The translations under genes and the position numbers were made by a program. A stretch of 21,725 nucleotides of DNA from an uncultured Chloroflexia bacterium (GTDB lineage Bacteria > Chloroflexota > Limnocylindria > Limnocylindrales > CSP1-4). The stretch is taken from contig CAVRGP010000014.1 of assembly GCA_963720755.1 (NCBI GenBank), positions 1-21,725 of the forward strand, read 5' to 3'. This document shows, piece after piece, positions 1 through 11,146 of the stretch (positions are counted from its first letter, which is position 1; every line of letters starts with the position of its first letter). Below the pieces are notes generated by a model that saw nothing but the letters and a program-made list of their open reading frames with translations, made no database searches and was not told where the DNA came from.

Positions 1-587
1 GGGCTGGATGATCTGCTTCCCAGGCGCTGATCGCGGCATCCTTCCGGACGAGGTAGTCGATCTCGTCGGTGCCAGCCGGTCATCTGCTGGCGGTGGATCG
101 AGCTCGAATCGATGGTCGTGCCGTCCGGCGGCGGACGCCTGCTCGGCGAGGTCGACCGTGAGGGTCGCATCAGGATCGGCCTCGAGAAGCTCGAACAGCC
201 AGCGTGGGTCGCTCGGTCGACGACGATCGGCAGCACGCGTTCTTCAACTGTTGTTCCGGAAATCTCGGCGTCGGACGTCGACAGGATCGCCCAGATGCCC
301 CACGCGGCGAGGGCCCATCGTCGTGCTCGCGCGAAGATCCGCGGCCGAAGTTGTCGCCGACCAGGAGGACCTTCCGGCCGCTCATGTCCGGACGTCGATG
401 ATTAATCGAGGCTCTTCAGCGACCCGTCCGACTCGAACCGCCAGTCGCGAAAGAGGGCGTCGGCAAGGCCCACCTTGTCGGTCACCTTGAGGTACCGGGC
501 GGGCACGATCTGGTCGGTATCCACGTTCTCGGCCGGCAAGGGGATGACCTGACTGCTGAACATCCTGAACGGTTCGGCCATGGTCAT
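1..587 (-). CDS. leuD: 3-isopropylmalate dehydratase small subunit; multiply frameshifted as given, 3' end runs off the window
   Basis: The N-terminus has [14 protein letters not shown]. LeuD motifs continue in shifting frames: [67 protein letters not shown] at 587 overlaps the leuC stop (ATGA); an alternative ATG is at 581. Confidence 0.9.
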
Positions 588-2029
588 CGTCCCCCGAGTG
601 CGGCCAGCGCCTCGATCCCCGGCAGTCGTCGTGGATCGGCGACGGCGCCGGCGATGGCGCTCGCGGCGGCGGTCAGCGGCGAGGCCAGGAACGTTCGGCC
701 GCCCTTGCCCTGCCGCCCCTCGAAGTTGCGGTTGCTGGTGCTGACGGCGTATTGGCCTGGCTCGAGTTGGTCACCGTTCATGGCGATGCACATCGAGCAC
801 CCGGCCTCGCGCCAATCCGCACCGGCCGCCTTGAAGATCTCGTCCAACCCCTCGCGCTCGGCCTCGCGCTTCACCTCGTCCGAGCCCGGCACGACCATCA
901 GCCGGACGCCATCGGCGATGTGGCGATCCTTGAGCACGGCCGCCGCGAGTCGAAGGTCGCTGATCCGGCCATTGGTGCAGCTCCCGACGAACACGACATC
1001 GACCTTTTGGCCGAGGATCGGCTGGCCGGGGTGAAGGTCCATGTAGTCGAGGGCGCGCTCGAGCGCCCGTCGTTGGCTGGGATCGTCCAGGTCCCCGGGC
1101 GAGGGGACCGGACTGGAGATCGGGATGCCCATCCCCGGGTTGGTGCCGTACGTCACCATCGGTTCGAGTTCGTCGGCGTCGATCGTGATCGACCGGTCAT
1201 ACGTCGCGCCATCGTCGGTCGGAAGGCTGCGCCAGCGGGCGACCGCGGCGTCCCAGGCGGCCCCGGCCGGTGCGTGCTTTCGGCCGTGCAGGTAGTCGAA
1301 GGTCGTGTCGTCGGGGGCGATCAGGCCAGCCCGGGCGCCGCCCTCGATGCTCATGTTGCAGATGGTCATCCGTTGTTCCATGGACAGGCCGCGGATGGCC
1401 GTGCCCGAGTACTCGAACACATGCCCGGTCCCACCGCCGATCCCGATCCGGGCGATGAGCGCGAGGATGATGTCCTTGGCGCTGACGCCTGGGGCCAGGT
1501 GGCCGTCGACCCGGACCTCGAACGACTTCGGGTCGCGCTGGAGGAGGGTCTGGGTGGCCAGGACCATCTCCACCTCGCTCGTCCCGATCCCGAAGGCCAG
1601 GGCGCCGAACGCGCCGTGCGTGCTGGTATGCGAGTCGCCGCACACGATGGTCATCCCCGGCTGGGTCAGCCCAAGCTGCGGGCCGATGACGTGGACGATC
1701 CCCTGGGCCGGATCGCCGATGCCATGAAGCGGGATCCCGAATTCGGCGCAGTTGGTCTCGAGCTGGTTCACCTGGGCCAGGGCCATCGCGTCGACGAACG
1801 GCAGGCTTCGGTCGGTCGTCGGGATGGAATGATCGGCGGTCGCGACGGTCTGTCCCGGGCGTCGGACCGTCAGGTCGCGCGCGCGCAACCCGGAGAAGGC
1901 CTGCGGACTGGTGACCTCGTGGACGAGATGGAGGTCGACGGCGAGGACCGCGGGTGCTCCAGGGTCCTGGGTCACCACGTGATCGGCCCAGATCTTGTCG
2001 ACGATGGTGCGTGGCTCGGTGGCGGTCAT
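584..2029 (-). CDS. leuC: 3-isopropylmalate dehydratase large subunit (4Fe-4S, aconitase family)
   Basis: Motifs [58 protein letters not shown]. Start placed at ATG 2029 (or 2032), where homology begins ([14 protein letters not shown]), not at 2104. Confidence 0.97.
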
Positions 2030-2035
2030 CATCGG

Positions 2036-2044
2036 AGCGTACCA
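2036..2044 (-). promoter_or_regulatory. Extended -10 promoter (TGG-TACGCT) for a probable leaderless leuCD mRNA
   Basis: The minus strand reads TGGTACGCT-CCGATG-ATG: a TGn+TAnnnT element ending 6 nt before ATG 2029, with no Shine-Dalgarno sequence. Confidence 0.6.
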
Positions 2045-2095
2045 GAGGCTCGGCCGAGACTCCGGAGGCGGTCGAACCAGGACCATCGAGTGCGG

Positions 2096-2123
2096 TTGAC
2101 GCATCGGCGAAGCCTGCTAGACT
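2096..2123 (+). promoter_or_regulatory. Sigma70-type promoter of the ilv-leu-cim operon
   Basis: TTGACG (2096-2101), a 16-nt spacer ending in TGc, then TAGACT (2118-2123). Predicted TSS is near 2130. Confidence 0.75.
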
Positions 2124-2459: not shown

Positions 2460-4334
2460 ATGACGATCGCCAAGGGAGATCCGACGGAACCGTCGCGGGT
2501 GACGGGGCGGTCGGCCACGCGGCGCAACCACGTGCCCAACGATGGGACGGCCGAAGCTGCCGCCGTCGAGCGCGCCCGAAAGAGCATGCTCCACGAGGGC
2601 CGCGACCTGAAGCGGACACGGATCGGGGCCGACGTGCTCTGCGAGGCGCTCCTTCGTCAGGGGGTCGATGTCTTCTTCAGCTATCCCGGCGGGGTGATCC
2701 TGCCGCTGTACGACATCCTGGCCGACTACCCGGAGTTGCGACACATCCTGGTCCGCCACGAACAGGGTGGCGCGCATGCGGCTGACGGGTATGCCCGGGT
2801 CACGGGCCGGGTGGGCGTGTGCATGGGGACGTCGGGACCGGGCGCCACGAACCTGGTGACCGGGATCGGGACGGCCATGCTCGATTCGATCCCGATGGTG
2901 GCCATCACCGGCAATGTCATGGCGGCGCTCATGGGCAAGGACGCTTTCCAGGAGATCGACATCAACGGCATCACCCTGCCGATGACCAAGCACAACTACC
3001 TGGTCCGCGATGCCGACGAGTTGCCGCGCGTCATCGCCGAGGCCTTCCACATCGCCCGGAGTGGTCGTCCCGGTCCGGTTCACATCGATATCGCCAAGGA
3101 CGCCCTCCAGCAGGAGACACGGATCAAGCACCCGAGCGAGGCGGAGGTGGTCGCGGGCCTGCCTGGGTTCAGGCCGAACCTGGATGGCCATCCACGCCAG
3201 CTCAAGCTCGCGGCGGCCGAGATCGCCGTGGCACAACGGCCGGTCATCCTGGCCGGGCACGGCATCCTCCACGCGGAGGCCTGGGACGACCTGGTCGCCT
3301 TCGCCGAGCGATCGCAGATCCCGGTCGCCTGGACGCTGCTCGGCATCGGCGCGATCGATGAGGACCACCCGCTTGCCTATGGCTACATGGGGATGCACGG
3401 CTGGAAACATGTCAACCGGGCGATCCAGACGGCCGACCTCCTGATCGCCGTCGGGATGCGCTTCGATGACCGGGTGACCGGCAACGTACGGACCTACGCG
3501 CCGTATGCCCGCATCATCCATGCCGACATCGACCCCGCCGAGATCGGCAAGAACGTCGCCGTCGAGGTCCCGATCGTGGGCGATGCGAAACGCGTGCTCC
3601 AGGCCTTGACCGGCCTGATCGACAAGGTCGATCCCTCGACACGCACCGGGTACTTCGCCCAGCTCGCGGAGTGGAAGCAGGACTCGGTGGCGTCGAGTTG
3701 GCACGGCTCCGGCGCCTGGCAGGCAGGGTTGTTGTCGGCCGATTATGTGGTCGAACGGATCGGAGCCCTGACCGACCACGAAGCGACCTACGTCGCCGAC
3801 GTCGGTCAGAACCAGATGTGGTTGGCCCGATACACCGGGTTCCGGAACCCCAACAGCCACGTCAGTTCCGGCGGCCTCGGGACCATGGGGTTCTCGGTCC
3901 CGGCGGCCATGGGCGCGGCGCTCGGCCGGCCCGATCGGGAGACCTGGGCGATCACCGGGGACGGCGGGTTCCAGATGACGTTCCAGGAGCTCATGACCCT
4001 CGTCGCCGACCATATCCCGGTGAAGATCGCCCTGCTCGATAACAAGAAGCTCGGGATGATCCGGCAATGGCAGGAGATCATCTACGCCGGCAACTACCAC
4101 TCATCCAGCCTGCCCGGACCGGACTTCGCCAAGCTTGCCGATGCGTTCGGGATCCCCGCCTTCCGGGCCAGGACCCCCGATGACGTGGACGGGGCGATAC
4201 GGGCCGCCCAGGCCGTCGACGGCCCGGCGCTCATCTGGTTCGAGATCGCCGAGGAGCAGAATGTCTTCCCGATGATGCCCGCGGGCAAGGGTTTGTCCGA
4301 CCTCATCGAGACGTGGGGCGGGCCGGACGAATGA
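2460..4334 (+). CDS. ilvB: Acetolactate (acetohydroxyacid) synthase large catalytic subunit
   Basis: YPGG, catalytic RHEQGG, TSGPGATN, GMHG, RFDDRVTG, and the ThDP motif GDGGFQM...DNKKLGMIRQWQ. RBS GGAGG at 2445-2449. Confidence 0.97.
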   Translation: MTIAKGDPTEPSRVTGRSATRRNHVPNDGTAEAAAVERARKSMLHEGRDLKRTRIGADVLCEALLRQGVDVFFSYPGGVILPLYDILADYPELRHILVRHEQGGAHAADGYARVTGRVGVCMGTSGPGATNLVTGIGTAMLDSIPMVAITGNVMAALMGKDAFQEIDINGITLPMTKHNYLVRDADELPRVIAEAFHIARSGRPGPVHIDIAKDALQQETRIKHPSEAEVVAGLPGFRPNLDGHPRQLKLAAAEIAVAQRPVILAGHGILHAEAWDDLVAFAERSQIPVAWTLLGIGAIDEDHPLAYGYMGMHGWKHVNRAIQTADLLIAVGMRFDDRVTGNVRTYAPYARIIHADIDPAEIGKNVAVEVPIVGDAKRVLQALTGLIDKVDPSTRTGYFAQLAEWKQDSVASSWHGSGAWQAGLLSADYVVERIGALTDHEATYVADVGQNQMWLARYTGFRNPNSHVSSGGLGTMGFSVPAAMGAALGRPDRETWAITGDGGFQMTFQELMTLVADHIPVKIALLDNKKLGMIRQWQEIIYAGNYHSSSLPGPDFAKLADAFGIPAFRARTPDDVDGAIRAAQAVDGPALIWFEIAEEQNVFPMMPAGKGLSDLIETWGGPDE

Positions 4335-4942
4335 CCGCCGATCCGACTTCCGTGCCCTCCGAACCGTCGACGCCTGCCGAGCGGCTGCCGGCCCACAGCG
4401 CGCCGCCGGACCGGGCCCTTCCCGGTGGCGGCGCGACCCGCCGACATGTCCTCGTGGCTGTCGTCCTCAACAAGCCGGGCGTCCTCAACCGCGTCGCCAG
4501 CCTGATGCGCGCCCGCAACTTCAACATCGACTCCCTGGCGGTCAGCCACACCGACCGTGAGGACATCAGCCGGATGACGATCACCCTCCACGGAGACGAT
4601 GTCGCCGTGGAGCAAGCCGCCAAGCAGCTCTACCGGCTGATCGACGTGCTCAAGGTCCAGGACGTCACGTCCGAGGCGACCATCCAGCAGGAGCTCGCCC
4701 TGGTCAAGATCCGGGCGACCGACTCGACCCGGGCCGAGGTCCTCAAGCTCGTGGAACTATCGCGCGGCCGGGTCGTGGATCTGGCCGACGGCTCGGTGAT
4801 CGTGGAGGTGACCGGGACCGAAACCGAGGTCGACGCGTTCGTCGCGCTGGTCCGGACCTATGGCATCAAGGAATTGGTTCGGACGGGCGCCGTCGTCATG
4901 GCGCGCGGATCCGGATCCATCGAGGAGGCGATCAAGCGATGA
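4331..4942 (+). CDS. ilvN: Acetolactate synthase small regulatory subunit (ACT domain)
   Basis: NKPGVLNRV...[31 protein letters not shown] 4331 overlaps the ilvB stop (ATGA). Confidence 0.95.
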
Positions 4943-5991
4943 CGGCGACGATGTACTACGACAACGATGCGGATCCGGCGGCGCTGGCCGGCCAGACCGT
5001 CGCGATCATCGGGTACGGCAGCCAGGGCCATGCCCACGCACTCAACCTCCACGAGTCGGGCGTCGATGTCGTGGTCGGGCTCGCTCCCGGGTCGAAGAGC
5101 CGCCAACTCGCCAGCGACGCGGGCCTCCGGGTGGCCGACGTGCGCGATGCCGTCAAGGCCGCGGACGTCGTGATGATCCTGGTCCCGGACACAGCCCAGA
5201 AAGCGGTCTACGACGAGGAGATCGCGCCCGAGCTGCGGCCCGGCCATCTGCTGATGTTCGCCCACGGCTTCAACATCCATTTCGGACGGATCGATCCGCC
5301 CGCCATCGTGGATGTCGGGATGATCGCGCCGAAGGGTCCCGGCCATCTGCTTCGATCGGTCTACCGGTCGGGCGGTGGCATCCCCGCCCTGTTCGCCGTC
5401 CATCGGGACCCATCGGGCACGGCGCGAGCTCGGGTCCTCGCCTACGGCCGGGCGATCGGATCGACCCGGGCGGGGGTCCTCGAGACGACGTTCGCGGAGG
5501 AGACCGAGACCGACCTGTTCGGCGAACAGGCCGTTCTGTGTGGCGGGACCGCCGCCCTCGTGAAGATGGGCTTCGAGACCCTCGTCGAGGCCGGTTACCA
5601 GCCGGAACTTGCCTACTTCGAGACGATGCACGAGCTCAAGCTCATCGTCGACCTGCTGTATCGCGGCGGCCTGAACTTCATGCGCTTCAGCGTCAGCGAC
5701 ACCGCCGAGTACGGCGATTACGTGTCGGGCCCGCGGATCATCGATGACCATGTCCGGGCGACGATGAAGCAGGTGTTGACCGAGATCCAGGATGGGACGT
5801 TCGCCCGGAACTGGATCGCCGAGAGCGAGTCCGGGCGCAAAGAGTTCGAGCGCCTGCGCGCGGCCGATCGCGACCATCTCGTCGAGCGCGTCGGGGCCCG
5901 GCTGCGCGGTCAGATGCCATTCCTCGATCCGATCGAGGTCACCGCCGGTCAGTCCCAGGCGTCCGCCACGACGCCCGGCGCGGCCCGGTGA
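4939..5991 (+). CDS. ilvC: Ketol-acid reductoisomerase (short class I)
   Basis: [59 protein letters not shown] overlap with ilvN. Confidence 0.97.
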
Positions 5992-7628
5992 GCACCGCCG
6001 TACCGCGGCCCGCCGGCCCATTCGTGGCGGCGGGCAGCGTCCGCATCTTCGACACGACCCTGCGCGACGGCGAACAGGCCCCCGGCGCGGGCCTGACCGC
6101 TGCCGAGAAGCTCGACGTAGCCCGCCAACTCGTGCGCCTCAAGGTGGACGTCATCGAGGCTGGCTTCCCGGCAGCATCGCCGGGCGACTTCGAAGCGGTC
6201 CGCCGGATCGCCCAGGAGACCCGCGGCGGCATCGCGGTCGCGGCCCTGGCTCGCTGCAAGGACGGTGACCCGCAACGGGCGATCGAGGCGATCAAGGTCG
6301 CCGAACGACCCCACCTGCATGTCTTCATCGCCACCAGCGACATCCACCTCAAGCACAAGCTTCGGATCGACCGTGAGACGGCCCTGGCCGAAGCCGTTCG
6401 GTGGGTCCGGCACGGTCGGGAGCGACTCGGCCGGGACGCCGAGATCGAGTTCTCCGCTGAGGACGCGTCCCGAACCGACCTCGACTACCTCCTCCAGGTC
6501 TACGAAGCGGTCGTGGAAGCAGGCGCATCCACGGTCAACATCCCCGATACGGTCGGCTACGCCATCCCGTCCGAGTTCGGGGCGCTCGTCGAACGCGTCG
6601 TCGGGCTGGTGGGGGACCAGGCCACGGTCAGCGTCCACTGCCACAACGACCTGGGGCTGGCGACCGCCAACACCCTGGCCGCCGTCCAGGCCGGCGCTCG
6701 CCAGGTCGAGGTCACGATCAACGGCCTTGGCGAGCGTGCCGGCAACGCGTCGCTCGAAGAGGTCGTGATGTCGTTGCGGACCCGTCCGACCCAGTTCCCT
6801 GACCTCGGCTCCGGTATCGCCACCGAGCAGCTCACCGCCGCCAGCCGGCTGGTCAGCTATCTGACCGGTTTCGCCATCCAGCCGAACAAGGCGATCGTCG
6901 GCGGTAATGCCTTCGCCCATGAGTCGGGGATCCACCAGGACGGCGTGATCAAGAACCCGCTGACCTACGAGATCATGACCCCGCAATCGGTCGGCCTGTC
7001 GGGCAGTCAGCTGACCATCGGCAAGCTGTCCGGCCGCCGTGGCCTGCAGGGCAAGCTCAAGGAGCTCGGATACGACTACGAGGGCGAAGCCCTCGACGAG
7101 ATCTATGCCCAGGCCGTGGCCCTCGCCGATGCCAAGAAGGAGGTCACCGACGCGGACCTCCACGCGCTGGTCGAACAGCGTTCCTCAGAGGTGCCTGCCT
7201 CGGTCGCCCTCGTCGGCTGGAGCGAGACCTCCTCGCACGGTGGGCATGCCACCGGATCGGTCACCGTGTCGATCGGCGGCGCGGAGCGGGCCGCCGAGGC
7301 GACCGGCAACGGGCCGGTCAACGCGCTCTTCGGTGCGGTCGATCAGGCGCTCCAGCCGGTCCTCGGCTGGCACCCGACGCTGACCGAATACGAGATCAAG
7401 GCGGTGACCGCCGGTGAGGATGCCCAGGGCCAGGTCCTGGTGCGCTGTCGACGCTCGTCCGATGAGGGACCTGGAGCGTTGGTCGTGACCGGACATGGGT
7501 TATCGACGAACATCATCGAGGCATCACTCGAGGCGTATCTCGTCGCCGTCAACAAGTTGCACGGTGCCGAGATCAACGGTGTCGCGGTCGCCTTCGTCGC
7601 GCCGCGGATCAACGAGTCCGCCCCGTGA
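5988..7628 (+). CDS. leuA: 2-isopropylmalate synthase
   Basis: [47 protein letters not shown], and a C-terminal regulatory domain (GNGPVNA...NIIEAS). GTGA overlap with ilvC. Confidence 0.96.
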
Positions 7629-8806
7629 CCACGGCTCGGCCCAGCTACCAGGTCGCCACGATCCCCGGCGACGGCGTCGGGCCCGAGGTGGTGTCCGCCG
7701 CACGACGCGTCGTCGATGCGGCGGGAGAGCGGTTCGATTTCGCCGTCGACTGGTCCGAGTACATCGTTGGCGGCGCGGCGATCGACACCTTCGGCGTCGC
7801 CATCCGAGGTGAGGACGTCACTGCCTGTGGCGCTGCCGATGCGATCCTGCTCGGGGCGGTCGGCGGTCCGCGATGGTCCGACCCGAACGCCGCCGTGCGG
7901 CCGGAACAGGCGCTCTTCGCCCTTCGCGGCGGACTCGGCCTGTTCGCCAACCTGCGCCCGATCCGAGTCTACGAAGCACTGGCCGGCGCCTCGCCGCTGC
8001 GTCCCGAGCTGCTTGCCGGGGTCGACATGCTCATCGTTCGTGAGCTCACCGGCGGCGTCTATTTCGGAGCCCGCCAGGAGGCCACCGGCGAACCGGGCGC
8101 ACGGACCGCCCTTGACACGTTGCCGTACGCGGAGGATGAGATCGCGCGGATCGTTCGCCTCGCCTTCGAGCAGGCCCGCAGTCGTGGCGGCCACGTCACC
8201 CAGGTCGACAAGGCCAACGTCCTCGCCACGTCGCGGCTGTGGCGGCGGGTGACCGATGAGATCGCTGCCGACTATCCCGACGTGCGCCTCAACCATCAAC
8301 TCGTGGATTCTTGCGCCATGCTGCTGGTCCGGCGCCCGGCCGACTTCGATGTCATCGTCACCGAGAACCTGTTCGGCGACATCCTGTCCGACGAGGCGGC
8401 GGTCATCGCCGGGAGTCTCGGCGTGCTGCCCTCGGCCTCGCTCGGAGAGCGGCGGACGGCCCATGGGATCTTCGGCCTGTACGAGCCGATCCATGGTTCC
8501 GCGCCGGATATCGCAGGGCAGGATATCGCCGACCCGATCGGCACGATCCTGTCGGCGGCGATGCTGCTCGAGACCTCGCTCGGTCGATCTGACGCGTCTG
8601 CCGCGATCCGATCGGCCATCGGCCAGACGCTCGACGATGGCTGGCGGACTGCCGACCTGGCCGACCCGGCCGATCCCACCGACGGGCTCGTCGTGCTCGG
8701 GACGACCGCCTTCGCGACCGCGGTGATCGAACGGATGTCAGGGGTCGAGCGCGGTCGGCGGGCTACCGGCAAGACCGCCCGGGCGACCATGGGGGCGGCG
8801 TCGTGA
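7625..8806 (+). CDS. leuB: 3-isopropylmalate dehydrogenase
   Basis: PGDGVGPEV, LLGAVGGP, ANLRP, RELTGGVYFG, DKANVL, NLFGDILSDEA, EPIHGSAPDIAG. GTGA overlap with leuA. Confidence 0.96.
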   Translation: MTTARPSYQVATIPGDGVGPEVVSAARRVVDAAGERFDFAVDWSEYIVGGAAIDTFGVAIRGEDVTACGAADAILLGAVGGPRWSDPNAAVRPEQALFALRGGLGLFANLRPIRVYEALAGASPLRPELLAGVDMLIVRELTGGVYFGARQEATGEPGARTALDTLPYAEDEIARIVRLAFEQARSRGGHVTQVDKANVLATSRLWRRVTDEIAADYPDVRLNHQLVDSCAMLLVRRPADFDVIVTENLFGDILSDEAAVIAGSLGVLPSASLGERRTAHGIFGLYEPIHGSAPDIAGQDIADPIGTILSAAMLLETSLGRSDASAAIRSAIGQTLDDGWRTADLADPADPTDGLVVLGTTAFATAVIERMSGVERGRRATGKTARATMGAAS

Positions 8807-10512
8807 CGACGGCACCGCCCGGCCCGCGCCCGGTCGTCCTCTACGACACGACCCTCCGCGACGGCACGCAGGGGGAGAACATCACGCTGTCCCTGGCCGA
8901 CAAGCTCCGGGTCGCCAGGATGCTCGATGAATACGGGATGCCATTCATCGAGGGTGGCTGGCCCGGCTCCAATCCCAAGGACATCGACTTCTTCGCCGCG
9001 GCCCGCAAGATCCCATGGGAGCAGGCCCGACTGGCAGCCTTCGGGATGACCCGCCATCGCTCCAACCGTCCCGAGGACGACTCGAACCTTCGCGAGCTGG
9101 TCGCCGCCGAAACTCCGGTCGTGACCATCTTCGGCAAGAGCTGGCTGCTCCACGTCACCGAGGTCCTGGGGGCCACAGCGCCGGAGAATCTGGACATGAT
9201 CGCCGACTCTGTCGCCTTCGTGGCAGAGCGAGGCCGCGAAGTGGTCTACGACGCCGAGCACTTCTTCGATGGCTACAAGGATGACCCCGCATACGCACTG
9301 GCGACCCTTCGAGCCGCTCGGCAGGCCGGTTCGCGGACGCTGGTCCTGTGCGATACCAATGGCGGGACCCTGACCGACGAGCTGGTCGAGATCGTCCACG
9401 ACGTGCGAACCGCCGTCGACGCGGACCGCGACGCACCCGAGGTCAGCTGGGGGATCCACACGCACAACGATGCCGATCTCGCGGTGGCCAACACGATCGC
9501 GGCGGTGGCCGCCGGCGTCCGGCATGTCCAGGCCACGATCAACGGGTACGGCGAGCGTGCCGGCAACGCCAACATGGTCAGCATCCTGGCCAATCTGGCC
9601 CTCAAGACCCCGCACGAGCTCGTGCCCGCCGGCGGCGGGACGTTGGCCGATCTGACCGAGCTCTCGCGCTCGGTGGCCGAGATCGCGAACGTCGTCCCCA
9701 ACGACTATCAGCCATACGTCGGGCGTTCAGCCTTCGCCCACAAAGGCGGCGTCCACGGCGCGGCCGTGGCTCGTGTCGAACGGAGCTATCAGCACGTTGA
9801 CCCGTCGTCCGTCGGGAATGCCGGCCGGCTCGTCGTCTCCGAACTCGGCGGTCGCGCCAATATCTCGATCCGCGCCCAACAGCTCGGGCATGAGCTCGAA
9901 GGGGTGGTGGATCCGCGCGAGTTGTCCATCTTGATCAAGGAACTCGAGGCCGATGGGCTGGCCTTCGAGGGCGCGGAGGCGAGCTTCGAACTGCTCATCC
10001 GGCGCCACGCCGCCGACTACGTCGCGCCATTCCGGATCGTGGACTACACCTGCCTGATCGAGCAGCGAGCCGGACAGGAACTGCTGGCGGAGGCGACCGT
10101 GAAAGTCGAGGTCGATGGCGAGATCCTGCATACCGCAGCCGATGGGAACGGGCCGGTCAACGCCCTGGATGCCGCCGTCCGCAAGGCGCTCCGAGCGTTC
10201 TATCCGGCGCTCGAACAGGTCCATCTGGTCGACTACAAGGTTCGGATCCTTGACGGCGGCGCGGCGACGGCGGCGCGGACCCGGGTCATCATCGACTCGA
10301 TGGACGGCGCGCGCACCTGGTCCACGATGGGAAGTGACACGAACATCATCGCGGCATCGGCGACAGCCCTTGCCGACTCCCTCGAATACGCGATCTGGAA
10401 AAGTGGTTCCGAGTTGCTCCGCCGCGACGAGCGCCACTTCACGACCGCACCGGAAACGGGCCCGACCGACCGAGCGGGGAGCCACGGCGCCACAGCCAAC
10501 CCACGGAGGTGA
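8803..10512 (+). CDS. cimA: (R)-citramalate synthase
   Basis: DTTLRDGTQGE, GGWPGSNPKD, YDAEHFFDGYK, LCDTNGG, HTHND, AFAHKGGVH, GYGERAGN, FEGAEASFEL, DYKVRIL. These motifs are characteristic of the bacterial CimA subfamily of DRE-TIM enzymes. Confidence 0.92.
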   Translation: MTTAPPGPRPVVLYDTTLRDGTQGENITLSLADKLRVARMLDEYGMPFIEGGWPGSNPKDIDFFAAARKIPWEQARLAAFGMTRHRSNRPEDDSNLRELVAAETPVVTIFGKSWLLHVTEVLGATAPENLDMIADSVAFVAERGREVVYDAEHFFDGYKDDPAYALATLRAARQAGSRTLVLCDTNGGTLTDELVEIVHDVRTAVDADRDAPEVSWGIHTHNDADLAVANTIAAVAAGVRHVQATINGYGERAGNANMVSILANLALKTPHELVPAGGGTLADLTELSRSVAEIANVVPNDYQPYVGRSAFAHKGGVHGAAVARVERSYQHVDPSSVGNAGRLVVSELGGRANISIRAQQLGHELEGVVDPRELSILIKELEADGLAFEGAEASFELLIRRHAADYVAPFRIVDYTCLIEQRAGQELLAEATVKVEVDGEILHTAADGNGPVNALDAAVRKALRAFYPALEQVHLVDYKVRILDGGAATAARTRVIIDSMDGARTWSTMGSDTNIIAASATALADSLEYAIWKSGSELLRRDERHFTTAPETGPTDRAGSHGATANPRR

Positions 10513-10516
10513 CTCG

Positions 10517-11047
10517 ATGAGCGATCCTGCGGGCGATGTCCTGCATCTAGCCCGATGGACAGCCGCGTCCGGCAGCAACACGCGCAGCCGCGGTGCGGTC
10601 GTGATCGCGTCTGGAGACCACGAATGGCGAGCGTCGGCTGAAGGCAACGGCCCGATCGACGCGCTGTATCGCGCCGTGGACGAGGCCGTCGACAGCGTCC
10701 TGACCGGCCATCCACGACTGCTCGCCTACGACATCCACGCCCTGGGCGAGGGAACCGATACGATCGGCGTGGTGGCCGTGCGGATCGCACCGCCGGATGT
10801 CGGCGGGCAGCGCGGCACTGGCGAATACGCCGGCGAGGCCCGTGGTCCGAACATCATCGCCGCGTCGATCGAGGCGTACGTCGCGGCGATCAACCTGATG
10901 TTGGCCGAAGCGCACTGGAAAGGTGCGACCGAGGCGGCCGGGAACCGTCGTGGCGCCTCCGTCCCGGCCGGCGTCGCCCGCGAGGAGCGGGCGGACCTCG
11001 ACGAGGACGAAGTGCCCCACGACACGACGGCCTGGTTCGAGCGGTAG
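10517..11047 (+). CDS. Stand-alone LeuA allosteric (regulatory/dimerisation) domain protein, 176 aa, with an acidic C-terminal tail
   Basis: Strong RBS GGAGGT (10505-10510) 6 nt before ATG 10517. Motifs GNGPIDALYRAV and NIIAASIEAYVAAIN align with the C-terminal domains of LeuA and CimA in this window. There is no catalytic TIM barrel. Confidence 0.88.
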   Translation: MSDPAGDVLHLARWTAASGSNTRSRGAVVIASGDHEWRASAEGNGPIDALYRAVDEAVDSVLTGHPRLLAYDIHALGEGTDTIGVVAVRIAPPDVGGQRGTGEYAGEARGPNIIAASIEAYVAAINLMLAEAHWKGATEAAGNRRGASVPAGVAREERADLDEDEVPHDTTAWFER

Positions 11048-11068
11048 GTCAGCCAGTCCTCACCCGAC

Positions 11069-11107
11069 CCGCGGTCGCGCACCGCGGTCGCGCACCGTGG
11101 TCGCTCG
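11069..11107. repeat. 13-bp tandem repeat CCGCGGTCGCGCA x2 plus one degenerate copy
   Basis: 11069-11081 and 11082-11094 are identical; 11095-11107 reads CCGTGGTCGCTCG. Confidence 0.85.
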
Positions 11108-11108
11108 G

Positions 11109-11114
11109 TAGCAT
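11109..11114 (+). promoter_or_regulatory. Possible -10 element (TAGCAT) for the lipoprotein/pheA genes
   Basis: A TAnnnT hexamer in an AT-richer patch 32 nt upstream of ATG 11147. There is no clear -35. Confidence 0.4.
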
Positions 11115-11146
11115 ATGGTTCACGACCAAACTCATTGAGGCTGACC

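Follow-up and report, generated by a model that had tools for sequence, protein, structure and literature searches.

A probable detachable sensor or regulatory subunit derived from the LeuA allosteric domain in a branched-chain amino acid operon of Limnocylindria

Why should an operon with two synthases that each carry an allosteric domain encode a further copy of that domain, free of any enzyme? To our knowledge, in all cases studied in the LeuA/CimA/homocitrate synthase family the enzyme chain itself carries the feedback control. Here we describe a gene, referred to as X, whose product is probably a detachable sensor or regulatory subunit. The reading that we favor, with a probability of about 0.5, is that X encodes a small, functional protein that is translated on its own and derives from the leucine-binding allosteric domain of LeuA, and that this protein acts in trans as a dimer, a ligand sensor with a docking tail. 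A literature search of openly accessible main texts found no description of a LeuA regulatory domain that occurs naturally as a protein of its own. The original prediction had regarded the system as undescribed, which is right as to function, but the family has already been named automatically in databases. NCBI calls its members [quoted passage not shown] or "hypothetical protein". Entries labeled "LeuA allosteric (dimerisation) domain" in Chloroflexota MAGs belong to the same family, and these names are automatic and carry no attached function.

The window analyzed is an entire contig (C14) of 21,725 nucleotides from a genome of 3.0 Mb that is 93.6% complete. On its forward strand lies an operon with the order ilvB (2460-4334), ilvN (4313-4942), ilvC (4939-5991), leuA (5988-7628), leuB (7625-8806), cimA (8803-10512) and X (10517-11047, stop included). 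The 2-isopropylmalate synthase gene leuA matches model NF002086 at 650.8 bits, and its product has a regulatory domain at residues 385-524. The citramalate synthase gene cimA, directly 5' of X, matches TIGR00977 at 645.6 bits (cut-off 450) and encodes a LeuA_dimer domain of its own at residues 391-530. Downstream of X are a small ORF that matched no family, then pheA and a gene for a HerA-like ATPase. Two copies of a direct repeat, ccgcggtcgcgcac, immediately follow the X stop codon (11048-11134), and no terminator-like site was called there. A leuC gene (584-2104, reverse strand; NF004016, 751.7 bits) is divergent from the ilvB promoter region.

The X frame was predicted to be intact and to have a strong Shine-Dalgarno site, and the sequence bears this out. 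It runs from an ATG at 10517 to a TAG ending at 11047 and encodes 176 aa. The cimA stop (TGA, 10510-10512) lies 4 nt upstream of the X start, and the Shine-Dalgarno sequence GGAGG (10505-10509) is placed within the final cimA codons, 7 nt 5' of the ATG.

LeuA_dimer (PF08502) is the sole Pfam family in X (77.5 bits against a cut-off of 24.9, E 1.1e-21), as had been anticipated. The match covers residues 7-128 and profile positions 20-130 of 131. In LeuA and CimA the same domain follows HMGL-like and HCS_D2 domains, which makes X the third copy in the operon as originally counted; Pfam found neither of these two domains in X. The protein falls far below the full-length LeuA models (NF002086, 56.3 bits against a cut-off of 532; TIGR00973, 48.8 against 598.7) and the CimA model (TIGR00977, 21.8 bits against 450). 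No ACT or ALS_ss_C domain was matched in X at E <= 0.01, and the operon's own ilvN does match. A search of 2107 word-indexed candidates of 96-308 aa returned 1777 proteins at E <= 1e-3, of which the best 120 are 172-192 aa long, 73-99% identical to X and carry PF08502 only. In the ESM Atlas the 30 nearest clusters likewise carry PF08502 only (30/30), and the few with known taxa are from Chloroflexota. A search with the LeuA regulatory domain gave nothing beyond C-terminal LeuA fragments from close relatives and is thus uninformative on other phyla.

The derivation from a LeuA-type rather than a CimA-type domain, part of the original prediction, is upheld by identities, by a shared segment and by a tree. 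The closest paralogue of X within the window is the LeuA regulatory domain (39% identity over 118 aa, E 4e-19), as against 28% over 102 aa (E 5e-4) for the CimA domain. A VLxxHPxL segment is common to X and LeuA and absent from CimA. The tree was a quick IQ-TREE analysis of 60 regulatory domains over 134 columns, with SH-aLRT as its only support measure; 90 domains were extracted and thinned by locus to 13 X, 3 X-like (from genus g17), 28 LeuA and 16 CimA sequences. The CimA domains separate from X and LeuA at an SH-aLRT of 100. X and the g17 form make up a single clade (95), whose placement among the LeuA groups is uncertain. Since the two forms are one clade, X is at least as old as the two families that hold them. 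The tree indicates that X arose once from a LeuA-type domain, before these families diverged.

The genomic neighborhood is strongly conserved. A locus scan in which each species was represented by a single genome confirmed 98 stretches, and 80 of them were retained. In all of these species-level Limnocylindria loci (80/80) cimA lies directly upstream of X on the same strand, the conserved position that the original prediction had looked for. The order ilvC-leuA-leuB-cimA-X is found in 80/80, and pheA lies downstream within the locus in 70/80. The X frames were delimited by script in 79 loci (L021 gave no start). In 76 of the 79 X begins at -4 to +16 nt from the cimA stop, and a GGAG or GAGG motif precedes the start by 4-16 nt in 77. 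The translation of X is coupled to that of cimA.

Two other readings of the junction were discarded. A programmed frameshift fusing CimA to X is contradicted by the relative frame, which varies among loci (41, 31 and 7 of 79), as well as by the variable first eight residues of X and the Shine-Dalgarno-like site in 77/79. Natural fusions were considered as clues to a partner (P0147, P0159, P0165, P0187, P0201, P0127, P0139, P0142, P0231 and P0244). These longer database proteins hold only patchy LeuA_dimer, PDT or HMGL-like pieces and appear to be frameshift products that read into pheA or out of cimA.

Selection on X was estimated from pairwise dN/dS (NG86, dS <= 1.2) in 460 pairs of 31 genomes, the pairs not being independent. 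The median is 0.263 for X, 0.145 for leuA, 0.151 for cimA and 0.228 for leuB. Purifying selection is thus seen (0.26), and these comparisons indicate that X is a real gene under such selection and not a remnant. Within X (3060 pairs of 79 sequences) the ratio is 0.22 in the core (residues 8-130), 0.33-0.36 in residues 131-154 and 0.48-0.55 in the tail (residues 155-176), where some positions are nonetheless fixed. The frame reaches the terminal W-F motif in 76 of the 79 ORFs, so that the motif, whose conservation had been in question, is retained. The ORFs of L032 and L079 look frameshifted, and that of L040 is truncated by the contig end.

These values bear on the view that X is left over from a duplication and slowly decaying, or that it simply buffers ligand and has no specific partner. 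The ratio for X is the highest of the four genes compared and the gene has been lost from some genera, both of which a relic could explain. The ratio is nevertheless far under 1, the frames are intact through the tail motif, the start site and Shine-Dalgarno sequence are conserved, the invariant tail residues lie outside the fold, and the clade with the g17 form dates X to at least the age of two families. We regard decay or simple buffering as very unlikely.

The distribution of X was surveyed in 401 Chloroflexota genomes, where tail-bearing full-length matches were scored at E <= 2.2e-58. In f1, the family to which the window belongs, 17 of 24 genomes have such matches, G000 among them. The gene is therefore neither absent nor degenerate in relatives at large, as a remnant was expected to be, yet it is missing from 7/24 genomes of its own family: six of genus g5 and one of g8. 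X-type matches were found in 19 of 24 same-genus relatives, and the remaining five genomes are 59-91% complete. In the sister family f3 a paralogue is present in 3 of 16 genomes, all three of genus g17 (E 1e-36 to 6e-39), and it matches X only up to about position 142. Outside f1 and g17 the 401 genomes gave matches at the LeuA or CimA level only. This includes G266, G309, G078 and G212 (unpublished), with LeuA-level matches only, and the conclusion is independent of these four. The X family is confined to one class, with losses in some genera.

Several observations on these relatives are recorded here. The g17 X-like gene encodes 174 aa, follows cimA-ilvE and ends in a different conserved tail, ...KDRIMSAYN[NSG] (L109 1414-1938, reverse strand; L110; L111). 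Two metagenomic relatives have the tails ...LMGAYNS and ...LMGLYNP. Three X-lacking genomes of g5 (G217, G244 and G276) each gave one weak match to the X profile (E 4e-8 to 1e-7), and in G217 a CimA query found cimA alone; these three genomes may have no LeuA that carries a regulatory domain. In three loci (L013, 1547-3157; L015; L018) leuA is only 77-79% identical to that of the window while ilvC there is 92-93% identical, and the leuA of other genomes that are similarly close reaches 92-95%. The pattern suggests that in a few close relatives leuA has recombined or been replaced inside the operon.

Can the isolated domain fold and bind a ligand? An AF2 model of X from a 39-row alignment (pLDDT 82.2, pTM 0.74) has two beta-beta-beta-alpha units in residues 10-129 and presents the complete LeuA_dimer fold. 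The first unit consists of strands 10-18, 23-32 and 35-44 with helix 46-62, and the second of strands 67-76, 83-91 and 104-110 with helix 113-129. This core (10544-10903, forward strand; block pLDDT 88-96) includes the GNGP (43-46) and NIIAAS (112-117) loops. In a Foldseek search of the PDB the ten best matches are all either Mycobacterium tuberculosis LeuA or the regulatory domain of the Leptospira interrogans citramalate synthase LiCMS, with E from 9e-8 (3fig_B) to 7.5e-7 and TM-scores of 0.76-0.80 on the small LiCMS target. Among the matches are the leucine-bound M. tuberculosis LeuA (3fig) and the isoleucine-bound isolated LiCMS domain (3f6g, 3f6h). The fold agrees with PF08502, the TM-score on 3f6g_B being 0.80. 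In searches by sequence, X as a single sequence matched no PDB sequence at E <= 0.01, and the family profile found 3f6g alone (E 0.0035).

Columns invariant across 53 X sequences are concentrated in particular elements of this fold. In the first hairpin they are R13, W14, T15, G19, S20 and N21, followed in the core by S24, R25, G26 and W37. The GNGP loop and first helix contribute G43, G45, D48 and L50. Further on are L68, D72, I73, H74, A75, P92 and P93, then N112, A115, A116 and S117 at the start of the second helix, and finally Y121, W134 and G136. The last two belong to a conserved H-W-x-G-A helix that, with a variable linker, occupies residues 130-154 (10904-10978, forward strand; dN/dS 0.33-0.36).

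In LeuA, according to one report, two leucine pockets lie at the regulatory-domain dimer interface, and the leucine carboxylate is held between two helix N-termini (PMC11057210). The GNGP and NIIAAS loops of X are conserved and form the dimer interface in the model of the complex described below. From the AF2 helix positions, they are putatively the N-terminal ends of the two carboxylate-binding helices. The LeuA of the window could be aligned to M. tuberculosis LeuA only across the catalytic part, and leucine-contact residues are therefore not mappable residue by residue. Another report describes an isolated CimA regulatory domain that binds isoleucine well enough to drive a biosensor (PMC13381585). 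Because the pocket-assigned loops are conserved and an isolated domain of this kind can bind its effector, X likely retains ligand binding.

The X tail (residues 155-176; 10979-11044, forward strand), which ends in ...DLDEDEVPHDTTAWFER, is acidic as originally quoted, with a pI of 4.2. Its motif is R158-A159-[DE]-[LI]-D162-E163-x5-D169-T170-x2-W173-F174, in which R158, D169, T170, W173 and F174 are invariant in the 53 sequences. The AF2 pLDDT is below 50 across residues 145-176. The tail motif was found in no other protein of the same genome.

A complex of CimA (569 aa) and X (176 aa) was modeled from alignments matched row by row, with 53 rows for each protein. It scored 0.63 (runs of 0.62, 0.64 and 0.63), against 0.00 for the best of three controls. 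Of 80 solved complexes 58 attained this mark, as did 2 of 110 mismatched pairs; these counts apply here only roughly, since the alignments were our own. At least 76% of the contacts agree between runs and the partner pLDDT is at least 72. On the X side the contacts involve residues 11-21, 24, 44-48, 51, 68-75, 82 and 111-117, that is, the first strand, the GNGP loop, the Y-D-I-H strand and the start of the NII helix. On the CimA side they involve 412-423, 449-453, 477-491 and 513-520. The X elements face the equivalent elements of the CimA regulatory domain in the canonical two-fold LeuA-dimer interface. Residues of X in the interface are invariant in 17 of 33 cases, compared with 29 of 90 in the remaining core (Fisher p = 0.06). 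The heterocomplex that the original prediction had envisaged is supported to this extent, but a heterodimer is not told from a homodimer: a single CimA chain was modeled, with CimA's own partner domain absent, so the score shows no preference of X for CimA over itself. The high score may also reflect a memory of solved LeuA dimers.

Evolutionary distances offer a weak hint in the same direction. The distances of the X core correlate with those of the CimA regulatory domain at r 0.78 (partial 0.60) and with those of the LeuA regulatory domain at r 0.67 (partial 0.41), each over 406 pairs of 29 genomes. The closer correlation with CimA can be explained by linkage because the X and CimA segments adjoin. 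Against a pairing of X with an enzyme, the regulatory domains fused in a LeuA-type dimer are already paired together (PMC9860122), and a free X domain would have to displace that pairing.

The CimA of this operon has a conserved basic C-terminal extension (residues 528-569; window 10383-10512, forward strand) beyond the TIGR00977 profile, with the consensus AIWKSGxELRRRDERHFTT and a pI of 8.7. W532, G535, R540, R541, D542, E543, R544 and F546 do not vary among 53 sequences. The extension is loosely like the X segments H-W-K-G and H-D-T-T-A. It was considered as a feature dependent on X and rejected as such, since four inspected genomes that lack X keep it. In these genomes (three of g5, one of g8) cimA is directly followed by pheA, and X is therefore dispensable there.

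The tight translational coupling to cimA and the pairing with the CimA regulatory domain in the model would also suit a structural or assembly subunit that serves the stability or activity of CimA (or LeuA) and that may have lost ligand binding. We consider this unlikely: CimA already has a complete regulatory domain, the four inspected own-family genomes without X keep cimA and its extension, and the conserved, putative pocket loops point to retained ligand binding. In the most far-reaching form of the sensor reading, X would heterodimerize with the CimA regulatory domain, as the aspartokinase beta subunit does with alpha, and install a leucine-type effector site there, and the W-F tail would clamp the enzyme, perhaps at the basic extension. 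We put this forward tentatively, as a possibility that is well short of probable.

The tail itself is absent (residues 145-176) from the confident contacts of the complex model. Being unplaced on CimA, it speaks for an alternative in which X senses amino acids as a homodimer and the tail reports outside the enzymes of the operon, to a transcription factor, to the machinery of transcription or translation at the ilvB leader, or to a protease. Some features upstream of ilvB are in keeping with this idea. A candidate leader or attenuator (2096-2459) includes a promoter-like site (2096-2123) and a 13-bp hairpin with a T run (2394-2422), the latter resembling a terminator, and the operon may thus be controlled at the RNA level. 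These pattern matches are the basis for a candidate attenuator, the other half of the two-tier control that had been proposed. X also has weak Foldseek matches to the dsRBD and to ribosomal protein S5 (E 1e-3 to 3e-2). Against nucleic-acid binding, the whole protein is acidic (pI 4.8), and the dsRBD matches have TM-scores of 0.18-0.28 and rmsd of 10-21 A. No regulator gene accompanies X across the 80 loci, and no Rfam family was matched in the window. A target outside the operon enzymes appears improbable on this balance. Between the promoter-like site and the hairpin lies an open frame that ends at 2371 and reads ...KVAVVVTSDGRRVHVPIDPVDVSLLDLLLALPGLGGLLGLITG..., with a high content of Val, Leu and Ile; it has a possible TTG start near 2172, with GGAG before it.

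In the favored reading, a trans-acting sensor, X would form the canonical two-fold dimer, as a homodimer or by pairing with the regulatory domain of either CimA or LeuA. It would bind a branched-chain amino acid in the interface pockets, most likely leucine or a leucine-like ligand, and would relay the ligand state through protein contacts. The disordered, conserved acidic tail would serve as a tethered docking peptide. The likeliest target would be CimA, the entry enzyme of the isoleucine pathway, to which X would add a second, leucine-type input. Such an input could be expected because both pathways use LeuB and LeuCD in common. X may in this way explain how soil Chloroflexota with citramalate-derived isoleucine balance leucine and isoleucine over common enzymes.

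We know of no heteromeric regulation in the LeuA/CimA family, and none was found in the same literature search. If X does pair with CimA and bring a leucine-type effector site to it, this would be the first known case in this (DRE-TIM) enzyme family of allostery that is heteromeric and crosses pathways. A natural, selected free sensor domain with a docking-like tail would show that the module can work in trans, and X would supply a ready-made small amino-acid-binding protein for biosensors.

How does X compare with known systems? The C-terminal allosteric domain of LeuA (PF08502; M. tuberculosis 3fig and 1sr9) has the same fold and is its best structural match. X and the local LeuA domain have the motifs GNGP, Y-[DE]-I-x-A and NII-x-AS in common. 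Unlike the LeuA domain, X has no fused catalytic domain, and it bears a 46-residue C-terminal extension with the conserved acidic W-F tail. Its own invariants relative to the LeuA domain are R13, S20, R25, W37, P92-P93 and W134. The regulatory domain of the L. interrogans citramalate synthase was crystallized alone with isoleucine, as the entry titles of 3f6g and 3f6h state. Together with PMC13381585, these entries indicate that a domain of this kind folds and binds its ligand when isolated. The crystallized domain differs from X in being a laboratory fragment of a fused enzyme with no tail, and it is 16-21% identical to X.

Free regulatory subunits formed from the sensor domain of an enzyme are known from the aspartokinase beta subunit and from IlvN/IlvH, the small subunit of AHAS. 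Such subunits pair with or dock on the catalytic subunit and confer feedback control. They use the ACT fold and not LeuA_dimer. The aspartokinase beta subunit or IlvN is the closest working analogy for X, in which a different fold, LeuA_dimer instead of ACT, would play the corresponding part.
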